Source: Candidatus Microgenomates bacterium (GTDB lineage Bacteria > Patescibacteriota > Microgenomatia > Daviesbacterales > UBA10151). From it: a stretch of DNA of 64,000 bases. Positions 8,401 through 61,365 of the stretch are shown piece by piece. The notes under the pieces are model-generated. The model was given only the letters and a program-made list of their open reading frames with translations, was not told where the DNA came from and did no database searches. Position 1 is the stretch's first letter, and every line of letters begins with the position of its first letter. A program made the position numbers and the translations under genes. The DNA lies in assembly GCA_016182045.1 (NCBI GenBank), contig JACOYE010000007.1:34121-98120 (forward strand), in the 5' to 3' direction.

Positions 8401-8408
8401 TTTTTTTC

Positions 8409-10470: not shown

Positions 10471-10509
10471 ATACCATTTCCTTGTACGATCGCACACCAA
10501 AATGGTATA
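10471..10509. repeat. 37-bp palindrome-containing repeat, copy C
   Basis: ACCATTTCCTTGTACGATCGCACACCAAAATGGTATAAA in convergent intergenic spacer. Confidence 0.8.
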
Positions 10510-10549
10510 AATTTTGGAAGCTACAAACGCAAGGTGTCACCTTGTGAGG

Positions 10550-11623
10550 CTAAGTAATCTTCCCATTCTCTACCCTTAAAATCCTGGCTGAATCTAAAAA
10601 GGATTTGGGGATATTTTCTAATTCCACTGTGGCTATTATGGTTTGCTGTTTTCCTACTATTTCCACCACATGAGCACGATGTTTACTATCCAGTTCTGAG
10701 AAAATATCATCCAGTAAAAGTATTGGCCTTTTACCCAAAATTTTGGCCATATATTCCAACTGAGAGAGTTTAAAAGCCAAAGTGGCTGTTCTTTGCTCAC
10801 CCCTAGAACCATAATGGGCCAAGTTTCTACCATCCAGCAAAATTGCGAAATCATCCCGATGAGGTCCAATTAATGTTTGAGCTGCAGCCACCTCCCTACC
10901 ATTTGTTTCCATAAGTTTCTCCATACTAACTATGCTTGGTTTATACTCAAATGTAAACTCCCCCAAAGGTTTTTCCAATCCATCAATGAACTCAAAAAAT
11001 ACTTGTCTCTTATCACTAATCACTTTTCCCTTATCCACCAACTCTTTTGTCCAGTAATCCAGTTCATCCACCCTACTTTTTCCTTCCCTGATTCTTTTTA
11101 AAACCCTATTTCTGGCTACTAAAAACTGTTCATATGCTGTCAGAGCTTTCTTATAATCACTATCCACCTGGGCCAAGGCCAAATCCAGATGCCATCTTCT
11201 TAAAGATGGCGGTCCTGTCACCATATTTATATCCGAGGGATAAAAAATTACCGCCGGCAAATTACCTATAAAATCCAAAACCCTTCTTGAGATACCATTA
11301 ACTAAAACCTTCTTTCTAAAATTAACTTCCCCACTTCTGTTAAGAATAACTAAAAGTTCTGTGTCTCCGCCAGCTGGCGGATCAGTTAAGAATGCTTCTG
11401 CTCTACAAAACTTCTCTCCCTCCTTAATTAACTCATCCTCATTCTCAACTCTTAATGATTTAGTAATTGATAAAAGGTAGATTGCCTCCAAAAGATTGGA
11501 TTTGCCGGCAGCATTATTACCAACTAAAATGGTGGGGCGTTGGTCAAAATCCAAAGACAGGTTAGGATAATTACGAAAGTTTGTTAAATTAAGGCTCTTC
11601 AGAAACATAACCAAAATTTTCAA
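10550..11623 (-). CDS. recF: DNA replication and repair protein RecF
   Basis: Walker A GNNAAGKSNLLEA, LLLDDIFSELD signature. Confidence 0.9.
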   Translation of the reverse strand: MKILVMFLKSLNLTNFRNYPNLSLDFDQRPTILVGNNAAGKSNLLEAIYLLSITKSLRVENEDELIKEGEKFCRAEAFLTDPPAGGDTELLVILNRSGEVNFRKKVLVNGISRRVLDFIGNLPAVIFYPSDINMVTGPPSLRRWHLDLALAQVDSDYKKALTAYEQFLVARNRVLKRIREGKSRVDELDYWTKELVDKGKVISDKRQVFFEFIDGLEKPLGEFTFEYKPSIVSMEKLMETNGREVAAAQTLIGPHRDDFAILLDGRNLAHYGSRGEQRTATLAFKLSQLEYMAKILGKRPILLLDDIFSELDSKHRAHVVEIVGKQQTIIATVELENIPKSFLDSARILRVENGKIT

Positions 11624-11720
11624 TTACCAATAACCAATTTTCAATGAATTTACAATGTTTAAATGTTTGAAAATTTTAAAATTGGAATTTGATTGTAAAT
11701 TGAAAATTGTAAATTGTAAA

Positions 11721-13094
11721 TTACTTCCCTTCCCAGTGTCCCAACCCCAAAAATTCTCTGACATGGTACGGCAATTGTTCTTCCCTAAAAAATAGGCTTG
11801 GTTTAAGTCCAAATAACCCAATCAACATGATGATCGCCCCCAGTGCCATCAAAATCGGTGTGGTACCAAAAATATCTGCCAGCAGTCCCGCAAGAAGAAT
11901 CGGTAAAAGAGACAGTCCCGACATGGCTACTCCAAGAGTGGCAAAAACTTTGCCTCTGTCTTGCTGGGGAGTATTTTCCTGTAAGACTGTTTGAGATGGA
12001 ACCAAGATTGATACCATCACTATCCCCAACAAAAATGACACTACAACCAATACGGCAGATAGAGGGGGTTGATAAAAAAATGGTAATGGTTTGGGGCGAG
12101 GAAGATGCTGAATAGCTGGAACGATAATCGGGGCAATCCCCACCAAGAAAAACAGTAATCCCCCAAAAAGAATTGATCTTGCCACAACTATTCTTTTGAT
12201 TAATCTTTGACCGATTCTACCTAAAACTAATCCACCGATGACTATTCCTAAACCTAAAGGTATCACTAAAACGTATGAGGCATCTGTGGCAGTAATTTGT
12301 AAAGTTTTCTCAAAAAATGAGGGCATTAAAACTGCCAAAACCCCAATCAAAAGCTGAACCAAAGCCAAGATTACTACCGAGGTTAGTACCGACAACTTAC
12401 CTCGTATCAAGTGAATGGTCTCCAAAATTTCAAATAACCCTACCTCCTTTATGGTTGACAGATGTCTTTTTCTGATGGCCCAAATTAATTTTTTCCCCTG
12501 CATATCTGGTGCTGTCACAATGGAGGGAAAAATCAAGGAAAGTAAGAAGGCAAGGGATACAAGTGTCCCACCTAATCCAAAAACAAAATTAATGCCTAAA
12601 TGATTTATCAAAGGCCCTGCCAAAGCAAAACCTACCAAAAAACAGGAGAAAACTGTGCTGGAAAATATCGCATTGGCTGTTATTAGTTGATCCTTTTTGA
12701 CAATAATTGGAACTGCTGAGGCTTCAGCTGGAGTATAAAATTGCCCCAAAGCATTAACGAAAAAGGCAACAACAAGAATTGCCGGATAACTTTCTTTAAA
12801 AAATATCAGACTAAAGAAAGCCAAACTTAGCAAAAAATCAATCATCATGATAATTTTTTTTCGATCAGTGATATCAACTAAAACTCCTGAAAAAAGACCC
12901 AAAAGTAAGGCAGGAAGGTAGATGGCAAAAATAAGGGCTGAAACAGCGACTGATGAACCTGTTAATTGAAATACCCAGATAATTAAAGCAAAGTTTAATA
13001 AGTTATAGGAAAGCTGAACCAAAATTTGATTAATCCAAAGGTTTAAAAACCCCCGGTTTTTTATTACCGAGGTAAAACTGACTCTTGCGGTCAT
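11721..13094 (-). CDS. MFS transporter
   Basis: 457 aa, ~12 predicted TM segments. Confidence 0.7.
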   Translation of the reverse strand: MTARVSFTSVIKNRGFLNLWINQILVQLSYNLLNFALIIWVFQLTGSSVAVSALIFAIYLPALLLGLFSGVLVDITDRKKIIMMIDFLLSLAFFSLIFFKESYPAILVVAFFVNALGQFYTPAEASAVPIIVKKDQLITANAIFSSTVFSCFLVGFALAGPLINHLGINFVFGLGGTLVSLAFLLSLIFPSIVTAPDMQGKKLIWAIRKRHLSTIKEVGLFEILETIHLIRGKLSVLTSVVILALVQLLIGVLAVLMPSFFEKTLQITATDASYVLVIPLGLGIVIGGLVLGRIGQRLIKRIVVARSILFGGLLFFLVGIAPIIVPAIQHLPRPKPLPFFYQPPLSAVLVVVSFLLGIVMVSILVPSQTVLQENTPQQDRGKVFATLGVAMSGLSLLPILLAGLLADIFGTTPILMALGAIIMLIGLFGLKPSLFFREEQLPYHVREFLGLGHWEGK

Positions 13095-31131: not shown

Positions 31132-31581
31132 TTATTTAGTTTCTATTTCTCTTAGGAATTGGTCCGGAGTGACAATGGGTATGTCTTTGAATGCCTTAAG
31201 AGGCAAAAGGTGCTTTCTATCTCCTGTGATAACATAATCCACTTTACCTGCTAATCCAGCTTCTAGAATTTTATTATCTGGTAAATATTTAATTAACCTA
31301 ACCTTAAGCTTAGGAACAACAATTTTACTAATAGAAGTGACACTTCTTAATAGTTTTTTTGCCACATATTCCGGCTGTTTAAATTTGGTAGTCAAAACAC
31401 AATATATTTCTTCCGAAATAGCAGGCGTTAAAATAATTCGTATATCTCCTCTGGAGGCTGTAAAAAGAATTTGTTCTGGTTTACCATCAAAAAGTAAAGC
31501 TGAAACGACTACATTACTGTCTAATACAACTTTAGTCACCGTGGATATACTCGTATAAATCGTCTTCTGTCTTAAAGCCAA
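31132..31581 (-). CDS. PIN-family toxin
   Basis: VVLDSNVVVSALLF PIN N-terminus. Confidence 0.7.
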   Translation of the reverse strand: MALRQKTIYTSISTVTKVVLDSNVVVSALLFDGKPEQILFTASRGDIRIILTPAISEEIYCVLTTKFKQPEYVAKKLLRSVTSISKIVVPKLKVRLIKYLPDNKILEAGLAGKVDYVITGDRKHLLPLKAFKDIPIVTPDQFLREIETK

Positions 31582-39967: not shown

Positions 39968-40291
39968 CTAGCGGATTTTCGTGCCTGGAGGAACTTTTTT
40001 GGGAACTGTCAAAAAGATCGGACCATCAGTTGTGTCTGCCGCTAGCATCATACCTTGGGATTCTAACCCCATCATCTTTCTAGATTCTAAATTAGCAACC
40101 ACTACCACTTGTTTACCTATAAAATCTTCAGGCTTATACCACTGTTTCACTCCAGCAAGAATCTGCCTAGGTTCTTCTTCACCTAGATCTACCTTCAACT
40201 CTATTAGTTTTTCACTTCCCTCCACCTCTTCTGCCTTCAAAACAGTCCCCACTTTTAGTTCTACTTTTGCAAAATCATCAAAATTTATCAT
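39968..40291 (-). CDS. tRNA-binding domain protein (CsaA/Trbp111-like)
   Basis: FAKVELKVGTVLKAE...QVVVVANL OB-fold pattern. Confidence 0.75.
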   Translation of the reverse strand: MINFDDFAKVELKVGTVLKAEEVEGSEKLIELKVDLGEEEPRQILAGVKQWYKPEDFIGKQVVVVANLESRKMMGLESQGMMLAADTTDGPIFLTVPKKVPPGTKIR

Positions 40292-41694
40292 GGTCTATTT
40301 GAATAATGTGCTCTTAGTTTAGAATAAGCAAGAAAAAGTTTAGAGTAAGGGATTGTTTTTCCAGTTTGTTCAGATACTTGTCTTATTGTATCGTGTATTG
40401 TTTTATTTTGTGCCATTAGCTCCAAAAACAATAATAACGATACACCATCAATATATTGAGGCAGACCTCTCAAATTATCACTTGAACTTTCAAGATCTCT
40501 TTTAAATCTTTGGTAAATATCAATTCTTTCTCTCAATTTTGCTTCGTAACCTTTTCTCACATCAGAATAACCTGCTAGTGTATCTGCAATCAGTCCCATG
40601 TAGACCTTGTTTACTTTAAATCCTGAAGCCAACATTCGATCTTGTGCACCATGGGCCATGGTCTCCAATATTCTTCTTTCTCGAACCGAAGCCCTTTTGG
40701 TTGTAGTTTCACCAGAAGACATAACTTCCTCCCCGATGCGCACTCTATATGCTCTATACGGTCCAATCAAAAATCGGGACACTTTGTTAACCGTATAAGG
40801 TCCCATCTTATCAAGCTGGGATCTGCTGATTCCTTCCTGCTCTAAAGCTTCCATAAATTCCTGCCAGCCTAAGCCATCTTCCTTAAGTTCTATAAAAACC
40901 TCATTAACCAATCCATTGTACAAATTTTTGCTTATACCGAGCTCTTCGAAAATTGCGTGTCTTGAATAACCCAAGTTTAAAAGATATAAAACACTCTCTG
41001 TCAATTGTGCTTTTCTATTAACCCAATGATTATTGTCAATCTCATCCAATGTTTGCTTCGCCTTCAAAGCCCTTTCTCTTAATCTACCCGGCTGTAAATA
41101 ATCAACTCTCTGGCTTGCTTTATCAAAAATCTTATTCACATTATAAACGTTTAGAGGAGGATCTACTTCAAGCTCCTGGCTAACCACCTTAGCAACTTTC
41201 TCTGTTTGCTCACCAGTTAAAAGTAATTCTAGAACTCTTTTCTCGATGCCATGCTTAGCTGTCTCCATGTAATGTCTAGCTCTTTGGGCACGCTCTGCTA
41301 TTTTTTGAATTCTCCTTGCTTCATAATCAGTCCCCTGACCTTTAGCAAAAGGTAAATTAATGGCTGTTTCCTGCGCAACTAATTTCACTGTTGCCTCTGT
41401 AAGTATATTTAACCCTCCAGAAGACAAACCCAGCTGTCTTGCTTCTGCAAAAGTGACTCTTGGAGGTGTTCTATGAACCATCTGATCAACAAGATCTATA
41501 AGTGTTACTTTTTTCCTCTCCTCTAAGGCTTCCTGATCATACTTCCTTTTTACAACAATAGCTAATGGGATAGAATACTTAACAATCACTTCAGGGAATT
41601 GCCTCCTCACTTCTTCCCATACTTGAGGCGGAATTACTTCAACACGGGCAAATCTGTTATCGATCCTAGGAGTACTACCTTCCCGTTCGGCCAT
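40288..41694 (-). CDS. hypothetical protein, 468 aa, no recognisable domain
   Basis: long ORF; 4-bp overlap with downstream gene. Confidence 0.45.
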   Translation of the reverse strand: MAEREGSTPRIDNRFARVEVIPPQVWEEVRRQFPEVIVKYSIPLAIVVKRKYDQEALEERKKVTLIDLVDQMVHRTPPRVTFAEARQLGLSSGGLNILTEATVKLVAQETAINLPFAKGQGTDYEARRIQKIAERAQRARHYMETAKHGIEKRVLELLLTGEQTEKVAKVVSQELEVDPPLNVYNVNKIFDKASQRVDYLQPGRLRERALKAKQTLDEIDNNHWVNRKAQLTESVLYLLNLGYSRHAIFEELGISKNLYNGLVNEVFIELKEDGLGWQEFMEALEQEGISRSQLDKMGPYTVNKVSRFLIGPYRAYRVRIGEEVMSSGETTTKRASVRERRILETMAHGAQDRMLASGFKVNKVYMGLIADTLAGYSDVRKGYEAKLRERIDIYQRFKRDLESSSDNLRGLPQYIDGVSLLLFLELMAQNKTIHDTIRQVSEQTGKTIPYSKLFLAYSKLRAHYSNRP

Positions 41695-41714
41695 ATTCTA
41701 AAAATAATCCATTT

Positions 41715-42077
41715 TCATGGCTTTTTTAACTTCTTCCAAAATTTTTTAGGCTTTTTCACTTGATGTAGTATTGCCTGGGATGAAGTTTCTGATTGTTTAG
41801 ATTTCCTTAACAGTAATTTTAGTTTTTCCATAATCCACATTCTGACCAAAGTTGATGGACCAATTCCCATTTCACTGCCTAATTTAGTCAGCTGAGTCAG
41901 GGTTTTGCCATCCATTCTCACTCCTAAAATATGCTCCAAGGGTTTTGCAAATTCAAGCTTAACTTCCTTCCAGGTTCCATAATCCAGCGGGCTATGTGTA
42001 TCCCAAAAATCAGCCTCCTCTTCATAGGATTTAAACTTTGGTATTTTCTTACCTTTTAAAGTTATCTTTTTATCCAT
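41715..42077 (-). CDS. brnA: BrnA-like antitoxin
   Basis: FKSYEEEADFWDTH...IGPSTLVRMWIMEKL. Confidence 0.6.
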   Translation of the reverse strand: MDKKITLKGKKIPKFKSYEEEADFWDTHSPLDYGTWKEVKLEFAKPLEHILGVRMDGKTLTQLTKLGSEMGIGPSTLVRMWIMEKLKLLLRKSKQSETSSQAILHQVKKPKKFWKKLKKP

Positions 42078-42334
42078 TTTCTAAAATTTCTTTTTTCTCT
42101 ATCATCCATCTCCCTAGCAGAAACAGGATAATAATCATAAAATCCTCTAACACCTACTATGACTAGTAAGTAACGACCGCCTTCAGTTCGTCCCCAGACT
42201 GCCATCTTAGTCTTCCCGCTTTTTATAGCAAAGTGCTTGGAAGAACAAACCTCCTCTACTTCATCTTGACTGACTCCATGCTTTCCAACATGCTCTATAT
42301 TCCACTCATCCCATATTAAATTTCTGATTTTCAT
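42062..42334 (-). CDS. brnT: BrnT-like (DUF497) toxin
   Basis: WDEWNIEHVGKHGVSQDEVEEV pattern. Confidence 0.65.
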   Translation of the reverse strand: MKIRNLIWDEWNIEHVGKHGVSQDEVEEVCSSKHFAIKSGKTKMAVWGRTEGGRYLLVIVGVRGFYDYYPVSAREMDDREKRNFRKWIKR

Positions 42335-42357
42335 TGTATAACATTGTTAAACAAAAA

Positions 42358-43422
42358 TCAATCCATAAAATAATCCAACTTCATAGCCTTTTTAACTTCT
42401 TCTAATGTTTTTTGGGCTTCTGATCGGGCTTTTTCAGTACCTTCTTTGAGGATCCGTTCGACAAGCTCAGGATCTCGCTCGAATCGAGCTCGACTTTTTC
42501 TTATTGGATCCAGGAAATTATTTAAAACTTTAACCAGAAACTTTTTTACCTCAATATCCCCCACCTGGCCTTTTGTATAGCGAGATTTGAGATTTGAGAT
42601 TTGAGATTTGAGATTTTCAGGACCAAAGGCATCTAAATAGATAAAAACGGGGTTGCCTTCAACTCTACCTGGATCAGTAGCATGTATTCTTTTAGGATCT
42701 GTATACATATTCATCACCTTTTTCTCCACTTCTCCAGCAGTATCTGAAAGATTAATCACATTCCCAGCAGACTTACTCATTTTGGCTTTGCCATCTGTTC
42801 CAGGTAAAATGCCTAAATCTTCTGGTACCAAAGCTTCCGGTACTGGAAAAACCTGACCAGACACCTCCGAGGTGGGCTTTGACTCCTCGGAGGTGGATTG
42901 AGAAGATTTACCATAAACTCTATTAAATTCCCTGGCAATTTCTCTGGTAATCTCGATATGCGAAACTTGATCCTTACCCACCGGTACTAAGTGGCTTCTC
43001 ACCATTAAAATATCTGCTGCCTGAAGCACCGGGTAACCTAAAAGCCCATAGGAGGGAATGGTGATATGTGCATCTCTCATCACATCTTTTAAGGTGGGCA
43101 TCCGTTCAAGTCTGGGGACGGTGGTTAAATTGCCAAAAATGATGGCCAGTTCTGCCACTTCAGCTATTTGAGATTGAACATAAATGGTGGCTTTCTCAGG
43201 ATCAATTCCGACGGAAAGATAATCCAATACCATCTGGTAAATATTTTCCTTAAGCTCTTGGGTATCTTTAAGCTCAGGTTTAGTAGTTAAGGTATGCAAA
43301 TCCGCAACAATAAAAAAGCACTCATATTCATCTTGCAACCTGACCCTATTTTTCAAAGACCCCACATAATGGCCTAAATGTAATTTTCCAGTTGGTCTGT
43401 CCCCTGTTAATATTCTTTTCAT
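42358..43422 (-). CDS. trpS: tryptophan--tRNA ligase with in-frame heptamer-repeat insertion
   Basis: GDRPTGKLHLGHYVG and KMSKS motifs; NLKSQISNLKSQISNLKS repeat. Confidence 0.9.
   Translation of the reverse strand: MKRILTGDRPTGKLHLGHYVGSLKNRVRLQDEYECFFIVADLHTLTTKPELKDTQELKENIYQMVLDYLSVGIDPEKATIYVQSQIAEVAELAIIFGNLTTVPRLERMPTLKDVMRDAHITIPSYGLLGYPVLQAADILMVRSHLVPVGKDQVSHIEITREIAREFNRVYGKSSQSTSEESKPTSEVSGQVFPVPEALVPEDLGILPGTDGKAKMSKSAGNVINLSDTAGEVEKKVMNMYTDPKRIHATDPGRVEGNPVFIYLDAFGPENLKSQISNLKSRYTKGQVGDIEVKKFLVKVLNNFLDPIRKSRARFERDPELVERILKEGTEKARSEAQKTLEEVKKAMKLDYFMD
42583..42617. repeat. tandem heptanucleotide repeat (GATTTGA)n inside trpS
   Basis: gatttgagatttgagatttgagatttga... Confidence 0.8.
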
Positions 43423-47419: not shown

Positions 47420-48211
47420 TCAAGTTTTCTTAAGAGATCTTGGAGGAGCACCATCATATTCAATCTCCTCATCAGCAATTCTTCTGAATGGCTTTTCTCT
47501 GACCCATTCCTCAAAAATATGGGCCACCAGCCCTACCACCCTGCCTATTATGAAAAATCCTTTACCTAACCTATAATCAAAACCCATATCAGAAATAACC
47601 GCTGCTATTGCCCCATCCACATTAATGGGGATCTTTTTACCCTTTTTCTCCTGTAGCACACCCTCTACATTTTGAGCCAGTTCACAATGTTCCCCATAAA
47701 AACCTAACTTTTTGGCTTTTTCAAAAATCTGGGTAGCTCTGGGATCTTCATCTTTATAGACTTTATGCCCGAAACCAGGGATTCTATCACCTGAACCCAA
47801 AACTTTTTCCACCAGCTTTTCTGCAGTTAATCCCATCTGAAGTAACCTGGCACACTCTTCAATTGCTCCTCCATGGGCATCCCCTATTCCCAAAACTCCG
47901 GCAGCCACTGCTGCTTGCATGGGATTACCAGCTGAGGCTGAATTCCTGGCATTAGTCACAGATGGTGGACCTAAACCATTATCTATTGTGGAAATAAGGA
48001 TAGCATCCAGCATAGCTCTTTCTTTATCAGAGGGAAGTTCACTTTTTAATTCCAGCCAGATAGCATCTGTAAAATTAACTTTATCTATCAATTCTGTGAC
48101 TTTATAACCATGAATATGAGCCTCCCCATCAATTATCCCTGAAATAGCTGTTTTCCACTTTTTATCCATATTTGAATAAGTTCTCCAAGTTACAAGATAC
48201 AAGTTTTCCAA
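47420..48211 (-). CDS. citryl-CoA lyase-like protein (citrate-synthase-fold, ACL C-terminal domain homolog)
   Basis: citrate synthase signature GFGHKVYK.EDPR. Confidence 0.7.
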   Translation of the reverse strand: MENLYLVTWRTYSNMDKKWKTAISGIIDGEAHIHGYKVTELIDKVNFTDAIWLELKSELPSDKERAMLDAILISTIDNGLGPPSVTNARNSASAGNPMQAAVAAGVLGIGDAHGGAIEECARLLQMGLTAEKLVEKVLGSGDRIPGFGHKVYKDEDPRATQIFEKAKKLGFYGEHCELAQNVEGVLQEKKGKKIPINVDGAIAAVISDMGFDYRLGKGFFIIGRVVGLVAHIFEEWVREKPFRRIADEEIEYDGAPPRSLKKT

Positions 48212-48275
48212 AAAATAATCAAATTCAAAAGTTTAAATTCTAAAATTTGGGTTTTTGAATTTGTTTGTAACTTGT

Positions 48276-49172
48276 TTACTTGGACACTTGATTGTTTAAT
48301 AAACCAGGTATTTCATCTGGAGTTTTGGCTATTTTGACACCGGCTTCCTCAAACGCCTTAATTTTTGATTTATAACTGCCTTTCTCTCCATAAATTATTG
48401 CTCCTGCATGGCCTAATTTTGTACCCTGAGGTAAAGTTTCTGCAAATAAACCAGATATAAAGGCAACTACTGGTTTTGTGAAACCACCAGATTTGATCAG
48501 TTCTGCAGCTTCTTCCTCATATGTTCCACCTATTTCCCCAAATAACACCACAGCCTCAGTTTGAGGGTCTTTTTCAAATTCTTCCATCAAATCTGCAAAA
48601 GTTGAGCCCACCAATATATCTCCACCAATACCCACCACAGTTGATTGCCCAATTCCATTTTTGGTAAGAATCCATGAAACTTCCGAGGCCATTCCTCCTG
48701 ATTTTGAGATTACACCTACTGATCCTTTGGAAAAAACTCCTCTGGGATCATCTCCTCCAATTGAACCAACCTTTCCTATTCCTGGTGAGATTATCCCAAT
48801 TGATGAAGGACCGACAATTCTGACAGTCTGTTTGGCTAAAGCTATTGCCTTGGCAGTATCTTGGATGGGAATATGTTCTGTTAAAACATTTATAAGAGGA
48901 ATTTTGGCCTTAATTGCTTCCTCTATTGCCCCAAATGCAGCAAAGTTAGGCACAGCGACAAATGAAGTATTTATCCCTGGATGATTCTCTAAAGCCTCAG
49001 CTATTGTATTATAAACCGGCACTCCATGAACTTCCTGACCGCCTTTACCAGGAGTTACTCCAGCCAAAACGCGAGTGCCATAATTTTTCATCTGCAAGGC
49101 CACTTTGGACCCTTCTTTACCGGTGATACCTTGAACTAAAACTTTGGTTTGTTGGGTTATTAGAATAGCCAT
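48276..49172 (-). CDS. succinyl-CoA synthetase alpha-like subunit (CcsB/AclA N-domain-like)
   Basis: CoA-binding VLVQGITGKEG; phosphohistidine loop GHAGAII. Confidence 0.85.
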   Translation of the reverse strand: MAILITQQTKVLVQGITGKEGSKVALQMKNYGTRVLAGVTPGKGGQEVHGVPVYNTIAEALENHPGINTSFVAVPNFAAFGAIEEAIKAKIPLINVLTEHIPIQDTAKAIALAKQTVRIVGPSSIGIISPGIGKVGSIGGDDPRGVFSKGSVGVISKSGGMASEVSWILTKNGIGQSTVVGIGGDILVGSTFADLMEEFEKDPQTEAVVLFGEIGGTYEEEAAELIKSGGFTKPVVAFISGLFAETLPQGTKLGHAGAIIYGEKGSYKSKIKAFEEAGVKIAKTPDEIPGLLNNQVSK

Positions 49173-49334
49173 TAAATTTCTCCTTTAAAAGCAGCGCAGT
49201 CATGAGCATAAAAGCAATTAGAAAGTTTTGTGTGTAGATACCCGTCACAAAACTTTCCCATAGCGAGACTAGAGATATATCTCAATGTTTCAGTATCCAC
49301 TAGTCGAGCGGTGCTTTTTGCCATGACAAGCTGA

Positions 49335-50549
49335 TTATTTTCCATAAGCCAGATCTACCATAATCTTTGCTGTACTTGTCATCGGTGTCTCCCTCCCATA
49401 TATATGAAAATCAAAACCCTCTTTCTTACCCACTTCTTTTAACATCTCAAAAGCTTCTTTATCCCTTGGTCCACCACGCCGGATCACAATTGGGTATATA
49501 GGCTTAGGCTTGATCTCTCGCAACCCTTCCACAAAGCCCATTAAAGTTTCATAAATATCAGTAAAATTGGCTGTTCCGCCCACAAACCAACAGCCTTTTA
49601 ACCCAGGTTTTGATAAAACTATCTTGGTTAGTTTTTTTAATTTCTCACGCGGAGGATTACCTGAGTGCTCAGTATAATTGGCAGGTCTTCCACCATATGC
49701 CAAAAGCGCATCCATATTGACAATAGACCCTCCACCTCCGGCTGCAATAACTGCAATATCTCCATCTAAATCCCAATAAACAGAACCTGCTGTACCTCTG
49801 TGATCCCCTTCATCAATTTTGCGGGCCTCAATTTCAGCCTCAGTTGGAGGCCTGCCAAAAAGATTTCTTTCCGGGAATTTTACCTCACGTCTAAAATCAG
49901 CATCATCATCCAAAATCACTTTGGCATCTAAGGCATATACTTTTGCATCACTTCGACTCGAAGACTCGCTCAGTGAATATTGGCTGAGCGAAGTCGAAGC
50001 CTTACCTATAACTAATGGATTTATTTCCGCTAACTCACAATCATATTTAGTAAATACTTGCCATAATTTATTAGCCACATCCACTAGCTCTTTTGGAAAA
50101 TCCTGTGGAGTTTCAAATCCTTTTAAAATATCAACAGGATAACTTTGTGCCCTCTTTTCCTCTACCCCAGTTCCTCCCTCCCCAAAAGTCATGATGGGGC
50201 CACGGGTTGAAGTATCATAGGAAAATGATAAATAATACTCTTTTTCATATTCCACTATCTCCTCTACCAAAACCTTTTCCACCTTTTCCCCATTAATCGT
50301 TTTTCCAAATAATTCTTTTAGGCTGGTGCTTACTGCCTGTTGACTGTCCACTTTTATGATTCCACCAGATTGCGCTCTTTTGCCAGATAAAGTTTGTGCT
50401 TTTAAAACCACCCCATCTGTCATTCTGACCCTGAGCGCAGTCGAAGGGGAAGAATCTAATTCCTCATGAGCTGTGATAAACTGTGACTCTGGCACATTTA
50501 TCCCACAATTTTTAAAAAGAATTTTGCCTTCAAATTCATAAAGAAGCAT
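49335..50549 (-). CDS. succinyl-CoA synthetase beta-like ATP-grasp subunit (CcsA/AclB-like) with two in-frame hairpin-element insertions
   Basis: ATP-grasp N-domain; low-complexity inserts SLSQYSLSESSSRSDAKV and SSPSTALRVRMTDG. Confidence 0.8.
   Translation of the reverse strand: MLLYEFEGKILFKNCGINVPESQFITAHEELDSSPSTALRVRMTDGVVLKAQTLSGKRAQSGGIIKVDSQQAVSTSLKELFGKTINGEKVEKVLVEEIVEYEKEYYLSFSYDTSTRGPIMTFGEGGTGVEEKRAQSYPVDILKGFETPQDFPKELVDVANKLWQVFTKYDCELAEINPLVIGKASTSLSQYSLSESSSRSDAKVYALDAKVILDDDADFRREVKFPERNLFGRPPTEAEIEARKIDEGDHRGTAGSVYWDLDGDIAVIAAGGGGSIVNMDALLAYGGRPANYTEHSGNPPREKLKKLTKIVLSKPGLKGCWFVGGTANFTDIYETLMGFVEGLREIKPKPIYPIVIRRGGPRDKEAFEMLKEVGKKEGFDFHIYGRETPMTSTAKIMVDLAYGK
49949..50001. 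repeat. hairpin element (CTGAGCGAAGTCGAAG family) inside SCS-beta-like gene
   Basis: cacttcgactcgaagactcgctcag...ctgagcgaagtcgaag inverted arms. Confidence 0.7.
50419..50456. repeat. hairpin element (GTCATTCTGACCCTGAGCGCAGTCGAAGG) inside SCS-beta-like gene
   Basis: shares CCTGAGCG(A/C)AGTCGAAGG core with 51417 copy. Confidence 0.7.
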
Positions 50550-51964: not shown

Positions 51965-52037
51965 GTACCAGGGGTGGGGATCGAACCCACAACCGCCACG
52001 TTATGAATGTGGTGCTCCGCCATTGAGCTACCCTGGC
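51965..52037 (-). tRNA. tRNA with CAT anticodon (elongator Met or lysidine-type Ile)
   Basis: cloverleaf readable: acceptor GCCAGGG, D arm GCTC/GAGC, anticodon loop TTCATAA, T arm GTGGG-TTCGATC-CCCAC. Confidence 0.75.
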
Positions 52038-53760: not shown

Positions 53761-53832
53761 CGCGGGGAAGTGTAACGGCTGCACACAAGGCTCATAATCT
53801 TGAGGCAGTGGGTTCGACTCCCGCCCCCGCAA
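53761..53832 (+). tRNA. initiator-type tRNA-Met (CAT)
   Basis: 5' CGCGGGG and 3' CCCCCGCAA acceptor identical to E. coli tRNA-fMet (C1xA72 mismatch), anticodon loop CTCATAA. Confidence 0.8.
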
Positions 53833-53882
53833 CACTTCGACTCCACTTCGGTAAACTCAGTGTCGCTCAGTGCAGGCACAAA

Positions 53883-54242
53883 TTATCTAAAAAACAACCT
53901 CCACCAGCCTAGCCAATTGGGAAGCCTAATTTGGGCAGATTCAGAAGTGCCCAGAACCTCTTTTAGCTTTTCTTCAGGAATAATCACCACTGTCTCGCCT
54001 GCTTTGGCCAAACCCAGCTTATTTCTGGCTTGCTCTTCAATAAACTCCTCTGATTGTATCTGGGAAAGTTTCTCCTTTAGCTGCCTGTTTTGAGCCTGAA
54101 GCTGAGCTAAATTGTCTGCCTCTTGAGAAAGCCTCTCGGAAGATTTGAGGGCATCTGAGATTTGATTGATCAGATTATAGCCAATTAAAAACATTATCAA
54201 AATGGCAATTCCCAAACTGATCCTTTTAATCATACTTGACAA
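53883..54242 (-). CDS. ftsB: septum formation initiator FtsB/DivIC-like protein
   Basis: N-terminal TM followed by coiled coil. Confidence 0.6.
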   Translation of the reverse strand: MSSMIKRISLGIAILIMFLIGYNLINQISDALKSSERLSQEADNLAQLQAQNRQLKEKLSQIQSEEFIEEQARNKLGLAKAGETVVIIPEEKLKEVLGTSESAQIRLPNWLGWWRLFFR

Positions 54243-55135
54243 AATTATCCTATAAACTTAAAATATGTGCCATGGCATCTCTAAAAGACGCTCATCAGCA
54301 ATTTATAGATCATCTTAAGAGTAAATCCCGTGCTTCAGCTACTATTTTAGCTTATGGTAAAGATACAGAGCAACTGGTGCAATATCTTAATACTTTAGGC
54401 AAAACTGAGACAGCTGATGTGAAGTTGGAGGATCTCCAGGCCTTTATGGCCAATTTGGCCAAAGAAAATTATACCCCCAAATCAATTTCCAGAAAAACCA
54501 ATTCCACCAAAACTTTCTTTAAATTCTTAAAATCAACTGGAGCAATTTCTGATGATCCTGCATCTGCTCTTGAACATCCCAAATTTGAGAATAAACCACC
54601 CAGGATTTTGACTAAGCTGGAATACAGGGCCTTAAGAGATGCAGCCAGATTAGATATCAGAATTTATGCCATCATCGAACTTCTGCTGCAAACAGGCATT
54701 AGAATTGGTGAACTGGCTAAAGTTAGGGTGGAGGATGTCGATGTTGGAAATTTAACACTTCATGTTCCCCCTTTTGAAGGAGCCAATGAAAGAATTATCC
54801 CTTTAAATAAACCAGCTGCAGAGGCTGTGGAAAATTATCTTAAAATCAGGCCTAAAACCCCTTCTCATGCCCTGTTTGTAACCAAAACAGGCAGGCCCCT
54901 GCTTATTAGAAATATTAGAACAGCCATAGATAGATATTTTAGAATTGCGGGTATTAAAGGGGCCAAGGTCAATGATTTACGCCACACCTGGGTGGCTCAC
55001 CAGCTCCAATCAGGAGTACCATTAACCATGATTTCCAAGTTAGCAGGTCACAAGAGACTTTCCACCACAGAAAGATATCTGCAATTTATTACTGGCCAAA
55101 ATGCCGAAGGAAAAGTTAAGCTGGAAGAGCTCTAA
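54236..55135 (+). CDS. tyrosine site-specific recombinase (XerC/XerD or integrase)
   Basis: C-terminal R...HxxR...Y catalytic region LRHTWVAHQL...GHKRLSTTERYL. Confidence 0.85.
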   Translation: MTKLSYKLKICAMASLKDAHQQFIDHLKSKSRASATILAYGKDTEQLVQYLNTLGKTETADVKLEDLQAFMANLAKENYTPKSISRKTNSTKTFFKFLKSTGAISDDPASALEHPKFENKPPRILTKLEYRALRDAARLDIRIYAIIELLLQTGIRIGELAKVRVEDVDVGNLTLHVPPFEGANERIIPLNKPAAEAVENYLKIRPKTPSHALFVTKTGRPLLIRNIRTAIDRYFRIAGIKGAKVNDLRHTWVAHQLQSGVPLTMISKLAGHKRLSTTERYLQFITGQNAEGKVKLEEL

Positions 55136-55275: not shown

Positions 55276-55554
55276 TCATTTCCTTTTGTAAACTTTTCTA
55301 TGACCACCTATGCCTAAAAACCTAACTGTGGTTTTACCCAACCACTCATATACAATCCTTATATCATCGGTTATTGAAAAAGCCCACTTACCTTTCATTC
55401 TGCCAGTTAAAGGATGATTATCCAAACGGGTATCTTGAGAATTTTTCCGAAACCAGCGGATTCTTTTATCAATTTCTGCTTTTAATGCCGAATCTTCATA
55501 ATGTATCTCATCCAGCAGCTGATTGAATTTGCCAGTCCGTTCGATCTTTACCAT
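55276..55554 (-). CDS. relE: RelE/StbE-family toxin
   Basis: 92 aa, DIRIVYEW...GHRKVY C-terminus. Confidence 0.7.
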   Translation of the reverse strand: MVKIERTGKFNQLLDEIHYEDSALKAEIDKRIRWFRKNSQDTRLDNHPLTGRMKGKWAFSITDDIRIVYEWLGKTTVRFLGIGGHRKVYKRK

Positions 55555-55846
55555 GTTCCTTTTGTTTTCTCTTCTCTATTCTTTTATGAAGTTTTTTGAA
55601 ATACTTGTCAATATCTTCTTCGGTTTTCCATACGGGAGATTTTTTTATAGGTTCATCCGCTGCTTCTAAAACCTGGTCTTCAAACCATCCTGGAAAACCA
55701 TTCTCTGTAATTTTATCTGCATCATAAAAAACCCTACGCAAACCGGCTCTCATTACTTCACTGATAGAGCTATATTTTCCTTCAGCTACTAGTTTTTTTG
55801 CGGTTTTGTACAATTGTTCTGGTAAAGAAATATTAACTGTTGTCAT
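55508..55846 (-). CDS. ribbon-helix-helix (ParD-like) antitoxin
   Basis: NISLPEQLYKTAKKLVAEGKYSSISEVMRAGLRRV. Confidence 0.6.
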   Translation of the reverse strand: MTTVNISLPEQLYKTAKKLVAEGKYSSISEVMRAGLRRVFYDADKITENGFPGWFEDQVLEAADEPIKKSPVWKTEEDIDKYFKKLHKRIEKRKQKEHGKDRTDWQIQSAAG

Positions 55847-55899
55847 ATAACAAAAATTGTATGATATTCATACATAAATGTCAATTAGCAAAATGCCGG

Positions 55900-55972
55900 T
55901 GGGCGGACCAGGACTTGAACCTGGAACCAATTCTGTATAAGAGAACCGCTCTACCAATTGAGCTATCCGCCC
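55900..55972 (-). tRNA. tRNA-Ile with TAT (UAU) anticodon
   Basis: acceptor GGGCGGA/TCCGCCC, D arm GCTC-AATTGGTA-GAGC, anticodon loop CTTATAC, T arm CCAGG-TTCAAGT-CCTGG. Confidence 0.65.
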
Positions 55973-55987
55973 GTGGAGAGAATTATA

Positions 55988-58330
55988 CTACAGCCTGGCC
56001 CTCTGGACAATCTCAGCTTCCACCTGAGCCGCATCACGGCCAAACTTCAGCCTGGACAGCTCCCTGATCGCCTGACCGATTTGAGGATTGAGCATGGTTC
56101 TCCATTTCTTCATATCTTTGGTGGTATCCAAAGAAAACGGTACCACCGGTTCACCATTAACAATGGTTTTGATGTAGGCGTGAGGAGACTCAATATTGAC
56201 CAGATCATTTTCAGTGAAAGTGGGAGAAAATTCATGCTGCAGGTAATTGGCATCAGTTACCCCAACCCTAAAAGCTATCACTGTACCCACGTTGCCAAAA
56301 ACCGCATTTTTCAAATCCTCCCCAATTTGTCCAATAAACTGATTGGCCACAATCAAGTTTAGTCTGTATTTTCTGGCCTCGGACAAAATATCGGCAAAGG
56401 TGTCGGTGGCAAAATTTTGGAACTCATCCACATAAAGGTAAAAATCTTTCCTCGCCTCCATGGGCATATCAGCCCGGGACATGGCAGCAGCCAAAATCTT
56501 GGGTACTAAAATAAGCCCCAAAAAGTTGGAGTTTTCCTCCCCTATCCTTCCTTTGGACACATTCATGATTAAGATTTTACCCTCATCCATCACCTGTCTG
56601 AGATTAAATGAAGATTGAGTCTGACCAATGATATTTCTCATCATCTTATTGGTGACAAAGCGGCCGAATTTGGACACTGTATAATCCAACACCTCTGATT
56701 TGTGAAAGTCAGAGGTCTGGGCAATCTGATCTGTCCAATAACGTCTCACCACCGGGTCTGTTACCGACGGCAACAGTTCTCTGACAAAGGCGGGGTCCTG
56801 CAGAACCCTCATCACCTCCACAAAGGTGGAACCGGGTTTACTCATCACAGTTAACATGGCATTTCTCACTCCATGCTCAAATCTGGGTCCGATAATACCG
56901 GTTTTATTGGGATCAAACAGCTTATACATCAGACCTATGATTGAGGAGACCACAAAATGTTTCTGTTCCTCGGTATAGGCCTCAAGCATGTTTAAACCAA
57001 AAGGCCTGGTCACATCTGAAGGATCAAAATAGATCACCTCTTCTGCCCTTTCAGGAGGAATCAGCTGAAGCATCTCCTCAGCCGCATCACCGTGAGGATC
57101 AATAAAACATAAACCCTTGCCAGACATAATATCTTGGATCATTAAAGATTTTAAGAACTCAGTTTTACCAGTGCCGGTTCTGCCAATCACATACATGTGT
57201 CTTCTTCTGTCATCCTCCGATAAATAAACAGGCCGGGTAATGCCTCTAAAAACAGACCTGCCTAAATAAAGTCCGGAAACCGGGATCTTCTCAGGAGCAG
57301 GAGCTCTTTTGGCGCTCATCCAGGAAATATAGGGGGTTTCCACTGATTTGGACGGGAAATGATAAATGGAGGCCAACTCATCCGGTGTTAAAACAGAAAC
57401 TTTGGTATACATGGGCAGATAACGGTAAATGAAATCAGTCATAAAACCTTTTTCTGAGTAGACCTTGGCCCCGGATAATCCATTATATGGACCTGAGAAT
57501 TGTTCAAAAGCAGCTTTGATATTAGTTAGATGAGCCTTAGCCCCTTCCGGGGAAGTTGACGAGGTGACAATTCTTATGGCTGTATAAAAACCCGGCTTGG
57601 ATATTTTTCCTTCCGCTGCCTCCAGTTGTTTGGCATCGGGTGGAGGTTTTGGTTCCTCGGCTTTGCCAGGATCCTTTTCTTTTTTTAGCCATTTTTTGCC
57701 CAAATCTTTCCATTTATCATCTGAGGGAGAAATAACAAGCTGTACTGCCGCTCCCTCCCCCGGTTGCATCTTGGCCAGGGCGGAAGTAAGAGCGGAGAGT
57801 GGATCTGTGGGTAAATCCTTAAAAGTTTTAAAGAGGAAGTAATCTGCATTCTTAAGCTTTAAGGCAGAATAGGCAGTGTGTCCCTTTTCGGAAAAGATAT
57901 TATATTCAGACACTTCCTTAATCTCCGCATCCGAATAGGCCCCATGAATTTGTTTTTCCACCAGATCCTGGTGAGTCTTATGGCAAGATATATAAAAGTT
58001 AATTGATTCATGCAAAGCCACAATTTCAAAAGACAGCTTTGATTGTGATTGAAAAGCTGACAACATCCCGCCGGATTTTCTTAAAGAGGCAAAGGTGGAA
58101 AAAAGCTGCTCTGTGGCATCAATTTTAACCTCATTTCCCCTGGCAACCTTTATTTGTAAAAGGACAAACTGTAACGATTCTTTCTCTCTGTCTTTATACT
58201 TAATCCAACCCACAAAAAATTTTCTAAAATAAAAAATTATACCCACCAAAACCATCAGCGCCGATAAAGCGCCGATGACCAAAATTACTAAACCAACAAA
58301 ATCTATTCCCCCAGTTTGCGTGACTTCCAT
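55988..58330 (-). CDS. membrane-anchored TraD/VirD4-like coupling ATPase (FtsK/HerA superfamily)
   Basis: N-terminal TM; Walker A VIGRTGTGKT, Walker B YLYVDEFQNF. Confidence 0.6.
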   Translation of the reverse strand: MEVTQTGGIDFVGLVILVIGALSALMVLVGIIFYFRKFFVGWIKYKDREKESLQFVLLQIKVARGNEVKIDATEQLFSTFASLRKSGGMLSAFQSQSKLSFEIVALHESINFYISCHKTHQDLVEKQIHGAYSDAEIKEVSEYNIFSEKGHTAYSALKLKNADYFLFKTFKDLPTDPLSALTSALAKMQPGEGAAVQLVISPSDDKWKDLGKKWLKKEKDPGKAEEPKPPPDAKQLEAAEGKISKPGFYTAIRIVTSSTSPEGAKAHLTNIKAAFEQFSGPYNGLSGAKVYSEKGFMTDFIYRYLPMYTKVSVLTPDELASIYHFPSKSVETPYISWMSAKRAPAPEKIPVSGLYLGRSVFRGITRPVYLSEDDRRRHMYVIGRTGTGKTEFLKSLMIQDIMSGKGLCFIDPHGDAAEEMLQLIPPERAEEVIYFDPSDVTRPFGLNMLEAYTEEQKHFVVSSIIGLMYKLFDPNKTGIIGPRFEHGVRNAMLTVMSKPGSTFVEVMRVLQDPAFVRELLPSVTDPVVRRYWTDQIAQTSDFHKSEVLDYTVSKFGRFVTNKMMRNIIGQTQSSFNLRQVMDEGKILIMNVSKGRIGEENSNFLGLILVPKILAAAMSRADMPMEARKDFYLYVDEFQNFATDTFADILSEARKYRLNLIVANQFIGQIGEDLKNAVFGNVGTVIAFRVGVTDANYLQHEFSPTFTENDLVNIESPHAYIKTIVNGEPVVPFSLDTTKDMKKWRTMLNPQIGQAIRELSRLKFGRDAAQVEAEIVQRARL

Positions 58331-58750: not shown

Positions 58751-59119
58751 CTAATACCAGATGACCTTGCCTATTATTTGTTCCTTGTTAATCGATCCAA
58801 ATTTTCTGCTATCTAGGCTATCTGTTTTATTATCTCCTCGGACATAAATTGTACGATCGTCCAAACTATGGATACGTTTAACTACCTCTTTGCCGTCAAC
58901 CTTAATCACCACAATATCACCCGCTTTTAAACCGACCAGTTTCCACCAATTAAGCACTAATACATCCTGATCTGGTTTTAATGTGGGCAGCATACTATTT
59001 CCGGAAACAGTAAATCTAAGAATGGGAAACAATTTCACCTTCAGTTGGGTAACCTGACGGAATCCTGGCTGGTTCCATGCCTTTTGTTTTCCAGAAAATC
59101 TCGGCAATTTCCTGGACAT
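58751..59119 (-). CDS. sodX: nickel-SOD maturation peptidase (signal peptidase I-like S26), true start probably internal
   Basis: S26 serine motif GNSMLPTL; directly downstream of sodN. Confidence 0.65.
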   Translation of the reverse strand: MSRKLPRFSGKQKAWNQPGFRQVTQLKVKLFPILRFTVSGNSMLPTLKPDQDVLVLNWWKLVGLKAGDIVVIKVDGKEVVKRIHSLDDRTIYVRGDNKTDSLDSRKFGSINKEQIIGKVIWY

Positions 59120-59516
59120 TTTTTAGAAGTTCCTGAGCTGCTTCCAAATTTACTTCCTGTCTGACTTTTCCAGTCAGTTTAAGTGTTTTCCAAACTAAAT
59201 CATGCAAATTTGGGTAATCTTTTAAATGCTCTTCCTTAAAATAATCTGCCCATAAAGTAACTACCTCATGCTCCACTTTCTGTGCATGTTCCTCTTTAAC
59301 TTTTATACATCTTGTAACCTTATGTGGATCATCTTTTGCTTCATTTATTAAATTAACCATCCTTAAAATAGTATGAGCAGCCATCTGCATCTCATGTGGA
59401 TCATATATCCCACAAGGAATATCACAATGGGCAAAAATAGGTTTTGTAGGAAGAATTTTGATGAGTCTATCAATCAACATCAAGTTTATATTATACCCAC
59501 TACTATAAAAATTCAA
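59016..59516 (-). CDS. sodN: nickel-containing superoxide dismutase precursor
   Basis: Ni-hook HCDIPCGIYDP after propeptide, LWADYF and IFWKTK conserved blocks. Confidence 0.85.
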   Translation of the reverse strand: MNFYSSGYNINLMLIDRLIKILPTKPIFAHCDIPCGIYDPHEMQMAAHTILRMVNLINEAKDDPHKVTRCIKVKEEHAQKVEHEVVTLWADYFKEEHLKDYPNLHDLVWKTLKLTGKVRQEVNLEAAQELLKNVQEIAEIFWKTKGMEPARIPSGYPTEGEIVSHS

Positions 59517-59917: not shown

Positions 59918-60313
59918 TTATACTGCTTCTATTGGATAAAATTTAATATCTGACATTGGATAATCCTTTTTATTTCTTGTTACTAACTGGCATTTTTCTA
60001 AAATAGCAGTTGACGCAATTAAAGTATCTACTACAGGAAGTAAAATTCCTTTTGTTTTTTTATATTCCTGTCTATATTGGCCAGCTAATTCTACGGTTTT
60101 CTTGTTTAAATTCAATACTTTTACAAGGTCGTACAACTGAGGCAAAAGCTGTTCTGCCTGCTCGCTTGTCCAGCCGGACCTTAACTCTGTTACAGAAAGA
60201 GTTGAGATTACAAGGGTGCCTTGAATCAAAAGTTTATCCAAACAATCAACCGCATACTCCTTTTTCTTAAAAAAATCCATCAAAATATCGCTATCAAGAA
60301 GATATTTTGTCAT
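59918..60313 (-). CDS. vapC: PIN-domain toxin VapC
   Basis: YLLDSDILMDFF N-terminus. Confidence 0.8.
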   Translation of the reverse strand: MTKYLLDSDILMDFFKKKEYAVDCLDKLLIQGTLVISTLSVTELRSGWTSEQAEQLLPQLYDLVKVLNLNKKTVELAGQYRQEYKKTKGILLPVVDTLIASTAILEKCQLVTRNKKDYPMSDIKFYPIEAV

Positions 60314-60567
60314 ATTCCCAGCCGCTTAAATCTTTTTTCATCAAGCCGCCTGCTCTTTCTAACCCAAGCCACAGAATCTTTAATATCAGAAAATGCCGGA
60401 GGACCTGCTAAAATTTCTTCAAAAGCTTTTCTGGCACGAATAGATCTGGCTTTTTCTTCTGCAGCTTCAGCCAAAAACCTACTTACACCTCTTTTAGGAG
60501 CTAGCTTTTTAATCATTCTGTAAGTTTCTTCGGGAAGCGAGATATTAACTCTAGTAATCATACACAA
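60310..60567 (-). CDS. ribbon-helix-helix antitoxin
   Basis: ITRVNISLPEETYRMIKKLA. Confidence 0.6.
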   Translation of the reverse strand: MCMITRVNISLPEETYRMIKKLAPKRGVSRFLAEAAEEKARSIRARKAFEEILAGPPAFSDIKDSVAWVRKSRRLDEKRFKRLGI

Positions 60568-60655: not shown

Positions 60656-61081
60656 TCAATAATCTTTAAGATCTTTTATCCATTTACTTTGTGCTTTTTT
60701 GATTAATTTCTCATCTGCTGTATACAAGGGAACCTCAAGATATTCAGCCAAAACGATATAACTGGCATCATATGAAGAAATATCCAACTCAAGAGCCTTC
60801 TCTAAAGTGGTTTTTAATAAATCTTTTGATGAATAAACTTTAAAATCTAAATTTAAGAATCCTTCATATGCCTCTATAGACTTCTTGGGATTAATTCTCC
60901 GCCCTTTGGTAGCAGATTTTAGTAAATTATTAATTTCGTAAAAGATAAAGACGGGAACTGCTACTCCTAAAGTTTTGCTTATAAATTCTTCTTTTATTCT
61001 GCTTGCAGCTGGATGATCTTTTTCATCAGGAAGTAACCATTTAGCAACAACCGATGCATCAATAACAATAGATTTAATCAC
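60656..61081 (-). CDS. vapC: PIN-domain toxin VapC
   Basis: SIVIDASVVAKWLL N-terminus. Confidence 0.8.
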   Translation of the reverse strand: MIKSIVIDASVVAKWLLPDEKDHPAASRIKEEFISKTLGVAVPVFIFYEINNLLKSATKGRRINPKKSIEAYEGFLNLDFKVYSSKDLLKTTLEKALELDISSYDASYIVLAEYLEVPLYTADEKLIKKAQSKWIKDLKDY

Positions 61082-61365
61082 TTAAAATTCTTTAATAACT
61101 TATTGGTACGCTCTTCAAGCTCCCTTTTATTTTCTTCCACCAATCTTTTGGTATTAATCTTTGCACCATGTAAGCTTTTCCTGAAATTATCTATTTTAGC
61201 CATGGCTTCCCGTTGTATATCCAGGTCTGAGATATGACCAAATCCCAATGACAAAGCTTCATTGATCACATCCTGCAAAGATACACCCCGTTGAAAAGCC
61301 AATAATCTGGATTGATCAAATAAATCTTTCCTAATTCTTACAGTAGTTCTAATTGTTGTTTGCAT
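61078..61365 (-). CDS. antitoxin (RHH/VapB-like)
   Basis: TTVRIRKDLFDQSRLLAFQRGVSLQDVINEAL. Confidence 0.55.
   Translation of the reverse strand: MQTTIRTTVRIRKDLFDQSRLLAFQRGVSLQDVINEALSLGFGHISDLDIQREAMAKIDNFRKSLHGAKINTKRLVEENKRELEERTNKLLKNFK

Follow-up and report, generated by a model that had tools for sequence, protein, structure and literature searches.

How the isoleucine codon AUA is read is the question raised by a tRNA gene in the window, the whole 64-kb stretch of DNA analysed here. The initial annotation had placed a tRNA-Ile with the anticodon UAU at 55900-55972 and had proposed an alternative strategy of AUA decoding, as in a few reduced genomes. In bacteria, AUA reading through lysidine and TilS is regarded as near-universal and essential, and a conserved, syntenic tRNA-Ile(UAU) in a major CPR lineage would make the exception the rule in a sizeable part of bacterial diversity. 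The window is a bacterial chromosome segment of ~38% GC with genes for PolA, FtsH, CarB, TrpRS, Ni-superoxide dismutase, and several toxin-antitoxin pairs.

The tRNA-Ile(UAU) gene, its locus, and its conservation

The gene and its immediate surroundings comprise the following features.

55900..55972, minus strand: tRNA-Ile(UAU), 73 nt (ARAGORN, Rfam, sequence, fold, family covariation, Ile-type 3-70 and 4-69 pairs)
55982..56010, minus strand: candidate sigma-70-like promoter, TTGTCC, 17 nt, TATAAT, 10/12 (consensus scan; pattern match only)
55988..58330, minus strand: VirD4/TraD-like ATPase (DUF8128/DUF87, 780 aa), the synteny anchor (Pfam/NCBIfam, orthologues, synteny)
54236..55135, plus strand: XerC/XerD-type tyrosine recombinase (Pfam/NCBIfam; same place in the related loci L001 and L003)

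ARAGORN called a tRNA-Ile(tat) at 55898-55972 on the minus strand, and Rfam RF00005 matched 55900-55972 with 72.4 bits (E 6.8e-14; gathering score 29). The two programs agree on the tRNA, and the anticodon returned by ARAGORN is the one reported in the initial annotation, which had left out the strand. The gene sequence on the minus strand is GGGCGGAUAGCUCAAUUGGUAGAGCGGUUCUCUUAUACAGAAUUGGUUCCAGGUUCAAGUCCUGGUCCGCCCA, and divided into arms the tRNA reads GGGCGGA UA GCUC AAUUGGUA GAGC G GUUCU CUUAUAC AGAAU UGGUU CCAGG UUCAAGU CCUGG UCCGCCC A. Its anticodon loop, CUUAUAC (C32 U33 U34 A35 U36 A37 C38), is the loop CTTATAC with U33, UAU, and A37 described before, read here from the minus-strand sequence. 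The discriminator base is A73, and CCA is not encoded. The acceptor strand GGGCGGA, the variable loop UGGUU, and the T-arm CCAGG/CCUGG define what we call a B-type backbone. The single-sequence fold was a cloverleaf with a minimum free energy of -28.3 kcal/mol (z = -3.4). This cloverleaf is continuous over 73 nt, with no intron 3' of the anticodon, and is not of the eukaryotic type. The stop codon of the VirD4-like gene lies 16 nt before the tRNA gene, and the candidate promoter ends ~10 nt upstream of the tRNA 5' end, within the 3' end of the VirD4-like gene.

Related long contigs have in common the gene order TrxB, NiSOD, S24/S26 peptidase, VirD4-like protein, tRNA, Xer-type recombinase, DivIC/FtsB, and two tRNA(CAU). 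Because this order is conserved across related contigs, the "integrase" and "conjugation" genes, namely those for the recombinase and the VirD4-like ATPase, are on synteny conserved chromosomal neighbours and not marks of a mobile element. Orthologues of the VirD4-like protein are 73-83% identical, and nearly all of the named ones belong to Candidatus Daviesbacteria. This places the window genome among the Daviesbacteria, within the Microgenomates of the CPR/Patescibacteria. In the window, nickel superoxide dismutase (sodN) and the S24/S26-type maturation peptidase are encoded at 58751-59516 (minus strand) beside thioredoxin reductase, and this oxidative-stress cluster is kept across Daviesbacteria. 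Type II toxin-antitoxin modules are dense on the minus strand at 55276-55846, 59918-60567, 60656-61365, and 31132-31581, and include YafQ/RelE with RHH and several PIN/VapC toxins with antitoxins. The YafQ/RHH pair at 55276-55846 sits between the tRNA-Ile(UAU) and Xer recombinase genes in the window and is absent from that place in L001-L003. Elsewhere in the window, three genes at 47420-50549 (minus strand) encode a citryl-CoA lyase-like protein (263 aa), a succinyl-CoA-synthetase-alpha-like protein (298 aa), and an ATP-grasp protein with an ATP-citrate-lyase citrate-binding domain (404 aa). The trio resembles an ATP-citrate-lyase/citryl-CoA synthetase-lyase module, which is unexpected for a CPR genome.

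To define the distribution of the gene, 80 VirD4-anchored loci from GTDB species representatives and three earlier loci, 83 in total, were scanned with ARAGORN. Ile(tat) was present ~0.02-3.3 kb downstream of the VirD4-like anchor in 66 of the 83 loci. By title, the 66 are Daviesbacteria, Woesebacteria, or "Patescibacteria group", joined by many MAGs that bear no title and whose anchor identity assigns them to the same groups; the chromosome-level records CP066688.1 and CP066693.1 are among the 66. The absences were mainly due to prematurely ending contigs; the others fell in a Roizmanbacteria-like group, which carries Ala or Leu tRNAs at the same slot in place of Ile(tat), and in CPR3/WWE3-like outgroups, which have Ile(GAU) nearby or no tRNA. 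The tRNA-Ile(UAU) gene is conserved and not a one-off, and within Microgenomates (CPR) the Daviesbacteria/Woesebacteria part very probably inherited it from its ancestor. The initial annotation, with its "as in a few reduced genomes", undersells a trait that belongs to a large CPR lineage and not to the window genome alone.

Among 57 distinct Ile(UAU) sequences, C32 U33 U34 A35 U36 A37 and A73 were invariant in all 57; at position 38, the Daviesbacteria sequences had C or U, and those of Woesebacteria-like genomes had A. In an alignment of 40 distinct sequences, cloverleaf pairing was retained in 840/840 stem cells, compensatory changes on both sides had occurred in 20 of the 21 stem pairs, and the covariation score was 0.87, compared with 0.23 for shuffles and ~0.1 for slid controls. 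Because pairing was complete and changes were compensatory across these 40 sequences, the gene is judged to encode a functional tRNA under strong purifying selection.

These data bear on two readings that would deprive the gene of its significance. A decayed tRNA or a mis-called anticodon, for which the rarity of this anticodon in bacteria is the sole point, has a negligible probability: two independent predictors agree, the cloverleaf is perfect, and the 57 distinct homologues, in which the stems are fully compensated and the anticodon loop does not vary, rule out an artefact or pseudogene, in particular by their covariation. Delivery of the gene as cargo of an integrative/conjugative element or prophage is very improbable as well. 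The tyrosine recombinase, the TraD/VirD4-like ATPase, and the YafQ/RHH pair beside it might suggest such an origin, as might the GC content of 44% at 56-58 kb compared with ~38% nearby; however, the recombinase is of the Xer type, the identity of the VirD4-like protein across species is that of a core gene, and the YafQ/RHH pair is the only element near the tRNA specific to the window genome. Chromosomal synteny from TrxB to DivIC is kept around the tRNA across Daviesbacteria and Woesebacteria, and two pattern scans of 2.9 million viral contigs with the tRNA-Ile(UAU) backbone gave 0 matches. The cargo reading was rejected on the basis of this lineage-wide synteny and the result of the viral scans.

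A metagenome scan with the acceptor stem of the window tRNA and position 34 left free gave 44 matches with T, 32 with G, and 5 with C. All matches with the full backbone of the window tRNA had T34. The G34 and C34 matches had other backbones, and those inspected lay in unrelated contexts, namely a CPR rRNA-operon tRNA-Ile(GAU), high-GC bacteria, a 23-tRNA array, and a phage contig. A tRNA(CAU) in L089 that resembles Ile(UAU) in its D-arm was considered as a C34 relative and was rejected, as it lies on a phage-like contig (phrog_2319). The array, in metagenome contig Ga0315298_1002720 (L112; 43% GC), comprises 23 tRNA genes in ~8 kb (4397-12085) and is probably a large phage or a tRNA island.

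Within Daviesbacteria, two Ile(UAU) backbones occur at the same slot, one with an AGGCCCG acceptor strand and a 4-nt variable loop, and the other with GGGCGGA, GCGCGGA, or GGAGCNG and a 5-nt loop. They are interleaved among species with 77-83% anchor identity and never co-occur, which points either to ancestral paralogues that were lost differentially or to recombination in which one replaced the other. Orientation flips and insertions were seen at the slot downstream of the VirD4-like gene in loci L001-L077, marking it as a local hotspot of tRNA gene turnover.

Identity of the tRNAs for AUR codons and the meaning of AUA

Two further tRNA genes, both with the anticodon CAU, lie in the window 2-4 kb from the tRNA-Ile(UAU) gene.

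53761..53833, plus strand: initiator tRNA-fMet(CAU) with a C1.A72 mismatch and a G-C-rich anticodon stem (ARAGORN, Rfam, family comparison)
51965..52037, minus strand: elongator tRNA-Met(CAU) with C3-G70, A4-U69, G5-C68, and an A31.C39 mismatch (ARAGORN, criteria of PMC1635315)

According to Silva et al. (2006, PMC1635315), C3-G70 marks tRNA-Met and tRNA-fMet, G3 or A3 with C70 or U70 indicates tRNA-Ile, and C4-G69 and C5-G68 are frequent in tRNA-Ile2. A35, U36, A37, A73, a 3-70 pair other than C-G, and a frequent C4-G69 were taken as the criteria of Ile identity. The window tRNA-Ile(UAU) carries G3-C70, C4-G69, and A73 and by these criteria classes as a bacterial tRNA-Ile. An Ile-type 3-70 pair (G-C, A-U, or U-A) was found in 56 of the 57 UAU tRNAs, C4-G69 in 42, and C5-G68 in 37. 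This acceptor stem (G3-C70, C4-G69, and often C5-G68) resembles that of bacterial tRNA-Ile2, which fits the view that the UAU tRNA is a converted Ile2.

Among the non-initiator CAU tRNAs of the related loci (34 distinct sequences), all 34 had C3-G70, 33 had A4-U69, and none had C5-G68. By the same pairs, the tRNA(CAU) at 51965..52037 classes as Met-type and not as Ile2-type. The conserved cluster consists of Ile(UAU), fMet, and Met, three readers of AUR codons, and a third CAU family that would represent a lysidine-type tRNA-Ile2(CAU) was not seen in it, either in the window or in the related loci. Since every non-initiator CAU tRNA of the cluster has C3-G70 and the rest are initiators, the cluster is without a lysidine-type tRNA-Ile2.

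In most members of the elongator tRNA-Met(CAU) family, positions 31 and 39, at the foot of the anticodon stem, form a non-Watson-Crick pair (A.C in the window; C.A, A.A, or U.G elsewhere), and many members also have U32. This odd pair could help to separate decoding by tRNA-Met from that by tRNA-Ile(UAU). Two peculiarities were also observed among the initiator tRNAs. In one Daviesbacteria subgroup, the D-stem is GUGU/GCAC with U11-A24, in contrast to the A11-U24 reported to be 100% conserved in bacterial tRNA-fMet, and in Woesebacteria, U1-A72 takes the place of C1.A72.

The codon read by such a tRNA is in frequent use. In 56 long ORFs of the window, AUA occurred at 21.5 per 1000 codons, or 27% of the Ile codons, and its frequency was ~18 per 1000 across the lineage versus ~7 per 1000 in the higher-GC outgroup loci. 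In CarB, 22 of the 26 AUA codons aligned with I, L, or V of the E. coli protein and only one with M. Among 80 VirD4-like orthologues, all 14 strictly conserved Ile columns mixed AUA with AUU/AUC (116 AUA), and conserved Met columns contained AUA in 1 of 319 codons. Judged by these alignments, AUA means Ile in the Daviesbacteria/Woesebacteria lineage, where it interchanges with AUU/AUC and not with AUG; the count of AUA usage that the initial annotation had proposed thus gave a frequent codon that behaves as Ile. The CarB gene itself, at 3063-6278 (minus strand), specifies the full-length large subunit of carbamoyl-phosphate synthetase, with 41% identity to the E. coli protein; CPR bacteria, to which this genome belongs, are usually said to have no nucleotide and amino-acid biosynthesis.

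TilS and the reading of AUA

In the window and 163 loci, ORFs of all six frames were searched for TilS by its PP-loop motif SGGxDS and by phmmer with E. coli TilS. Neither search yielded a tilS, either in the 64-kb window, which is ~6% of the genome, or in 1.85 Mb of related DNA, mostly one syntenic region that covers ~150-600 protein families versus ~800-1100 genes per genome. The only PP-loop matches were MnmA-like genes in two WWE3-like outgroup loci (L081, 7126-8250, and L082, 9911-11030), where this MnmA-like tRNA 2-thiouridylase is encoded a few kb upstream of tRNA-Ile(GAU); PP-loop enzymes of any kind were not seen in the Daviesbacteria or Woesebacteria loci examined. IleRS matches beside tRNA-Ile(GAU) in metagenome loci were rejected as Microgenomates IleRS, as they lie on non-CPR contigs of 60-68% GC.

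In many bacteria, tilS stands in the arrangement tilS-hpt-ftsH. In the 12 loci that reach ftsH, tilS was not upstream of it. Two ORFs sized like a tRNA-binding protein and TrpRS precede ftsH in 10 of these 12 Microgenomates loci, with direct annotation in the window and L003 only; in L003, trpS is immediately before ftsH. In the window, the corresponding stretch at 39968-43422 (minus strand) reads trpS, a CopG-like antitoxin, a 468-aa helical/HTH-like ORF, a Trbp111/CsaA-like stand-alone tRNA-binding protein (107 aa), and ftsH. The 468-aa ORF was considered as a modification enzyme and was rejected, since Pfam, NCBIfam, and PDB gave nothing for it but weak hints of an HTH and since it adjoins the CopG antitoxin; no ORF of this size precedes ftsH in the other ftsH-bearing Microgenomates loci. 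Some Microgenomates have archaeal-type TrpRS/TyrRS (Mukai et al. 2017, PMC5370408); the window TrpRS scores as the bacterial trpS family.

Taken together, the gene very probably encodes a functional, chromosomal, minor tRNA-Ile(UAU) that is charged by IleRS and reads AUA by a U34-A pair. IleRS, assumed in this lineage to accept UAU, would charge the tRNA, its U34 would pair with the A of the frequent AUA codon, and AUG would be left to the elongator and initiator tRNA-Met(CAU). The tRNA may have arisen when C34 of a lysidine-type tRNA-Ile2(CAU) became U34. It is also somewhat more probable than the opposite that tRNA-Ile(UAU) is the sole decoder of AUA, TilS and tRNA-Ile2(CAU) having been lost as in Mycoplasma mobile. 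Sole decoding would require an IleRS that accepts UAU and a means to stop U34 from misreading AUG; such misreading might be limited by ribosome discrimination, by competition from tRNA-Met, or by some modification of U34, as discussed for M. mobile. Of the alternative strategy put forward in the initial annotation, the reading of AUA as Ile by this tRNA is well supported by the identity pairs, the codon data, and the conservation, and the replacement of TilS and lysidine is supported only indirectly, by a cluster with no Ile2-type CAU tRNA and by a window, an ftsH slot, and 1.85 Mb with no tilS. CPR bacteria have no tadA and no tRNA-Arg(ACG) and use separate tRNAs instead (PMC8629427), so the loss of a second wobble-modification system is plausible. 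For the whole Daviesbacteria/Woesebacteria branch of Microgenomates, we put the chances evenly for and against its having abandoned TilS and lysidine and reading AUA solely by tRNA-Ile(UAU).

The main competitor of sole decoding is a redundant system, in which TilS and tRNA-Ile2(CAU) are encoded elsewhere in the genome and the UAU tRNA is a supplementary AUA reader under heavy AUA usage. We regard this as the less probable arrangement, though a substantial possibility: double systems of TilS and tRNA-Ile(UAU) exist, for example in Lactobacillus casei/plantarum and Cyanothece (PMC3575796), TilS is nearly universal in bacteria, and the tilS search covered a minority of the gene repertoire. Redundancy agrees poorly with the retention of the UAU tRNA under strong purifying selection across a class-level lineage with genomes of only 0.8-1.1 Mb, with an Ile2-like acceptor signature on the UAU tRNA itself, as if it were a converted Ile2 gene, and with an AUR cluster devoid of Ile2-type CAU tRNAs and an ftsH slot devoid of tilS. 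A different proposal retains the same tRNA and has its U34 modified post-transcriptionally by some enzyme that restricts pairing to A, so that fidelity would not lie with the ribosome, as it does in M. mobile; this we consider rather unlikely. It would have a parallel in eukaryotes, which modify the UAU anticodon to pseudouridine-A-pseudouridine, and E. coli ribosomes let an unmodified UAU anticodon read AUG. The tight constraint on C32 and position 38 of Ile(UAU) would also agree with it, and Taniguchi et al. (PMC3575796) considered that the UAU anticodon of M. suis might be modified. However, U34 is unmodified in M. mobile, the one bacterium examined (PMC3575796), CPR bacteria tend to lose wobble-modification enzymes (PMC8629427), and no candidate modification enzyme is linked to the tRNA-Ile(UAU) locus, the 468-aa ORF having no enzyme signature.

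Significance and relation to known AUA-decoding systems

Nearly all bacteria have TilS, and in some species tRNA-Ile(UAU) accompanies it (PMC3575796). In 2013, nine tilS-less species were known, including M. mobile, M. haemofelis, M. suis, and Bifidobacterium and Neorickettsia species (PMC3575796), and in 2014, tRNADB-CE held the TAT anticodon in 19 species. A 2026 preprint still calls tRNA-Ile(UAU) "rare cases" (bioRxiv 10.64898/2026.02.03.703510). Our literature search found no paper linking CPR, Patescibacteria, or Microgenomates with tilS, lysidine, or the UAU anticodon. The tRNA-Ile(UAU) of Microgenomates is thus an apparently unreported, new, and very large addition to the known AUA decoding of the Mycoplasma mobile type. 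In metagenomes, 371 tDNA-Ile(TAT) sequences were left unassigned by Taniguchi et al. (2013, PMC3575796), and the present distribution suggests Microgenomates as the source of many of them.

The conserved Ile(UAU) fits the tendency of CPR bacteria to replace wobble modifications by extra tRNA genes, and it offers many natural sequences in which the handling of the UAU anticodon by IleRS and the ribosome can be studied. In M. mobile, IleRS is adapted to UAU by Arg865 (Arg/Lys in place of E. coli Trp905); the other known adaptation is a eukaryote-type IleRS2 (PMC3575796). Were TilS abandoned throughout the branch, this would be by far the largest TilS-free bacterial clade, with hundreds to thousands of uncultivated species, and it would imply a lineage-wide adaptation of IleRS and the decoding centre, or some U34 modification, that keeps AUG from being read as Ile. 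In these organisms, tilS would serve poorly as a universal marker or drug target, and annotation pipelines should not count on a tRNA-Ile2(CAU).

Among known systems, the tRNA-Ile2(UAU) of Mycoplasma mobile (PMC3575796) is similar in its TAT anticodon with A37, in a small AT-rich genome with frequent AUA, in a tRNA that seems derived from Ile2, and in that no Ile2(CAU) or tilS was seen in the DNA examined (the window and 1.85 Mb). Unlike the isolated species of the M. mobile type, the Microgenomates trait is conserved across a large CPR lineage of Daviesbacteria, Woesebacteria, and relatives. Lactobacillus casei/plantarum, Cyanothece PCC 7424, and Ferrimonas balearica, which have tilS and Ile(UAU) (PMC3575796), likewise carry a genomic tRNA-Ile(TAT); these are scattered species whose clades are otherwise devoid of it, whereas the Microgenomates gene is syntenic and lineage-wide and belongs to a cluster without Ile2-type CAU tRNA. 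In tilS-suppressor strains of Bacillus subtilis, in which tRNA-Ile1(GAU) was changed to UAU (Fabret 2011; Kohrer 2014, PMC3919564), the UAU anticodon also serves AUA, and no lysidine is present. Those strains recruited their major tRNA-Ile in the laboratory, whereas the Microgenomates tRNA has a backbone of its own that occurs in metagenomes only with T34. Finally, the eukaryotic cytoplasmic tRNA-Ile(UAU) has the same anticodon for the same codon, with an intron and a pseudouridine-A-pseudouridine anticodon, whereas the Microgenomates gene is intronless and encodes a typical bacterial tRNA of 73 nt.
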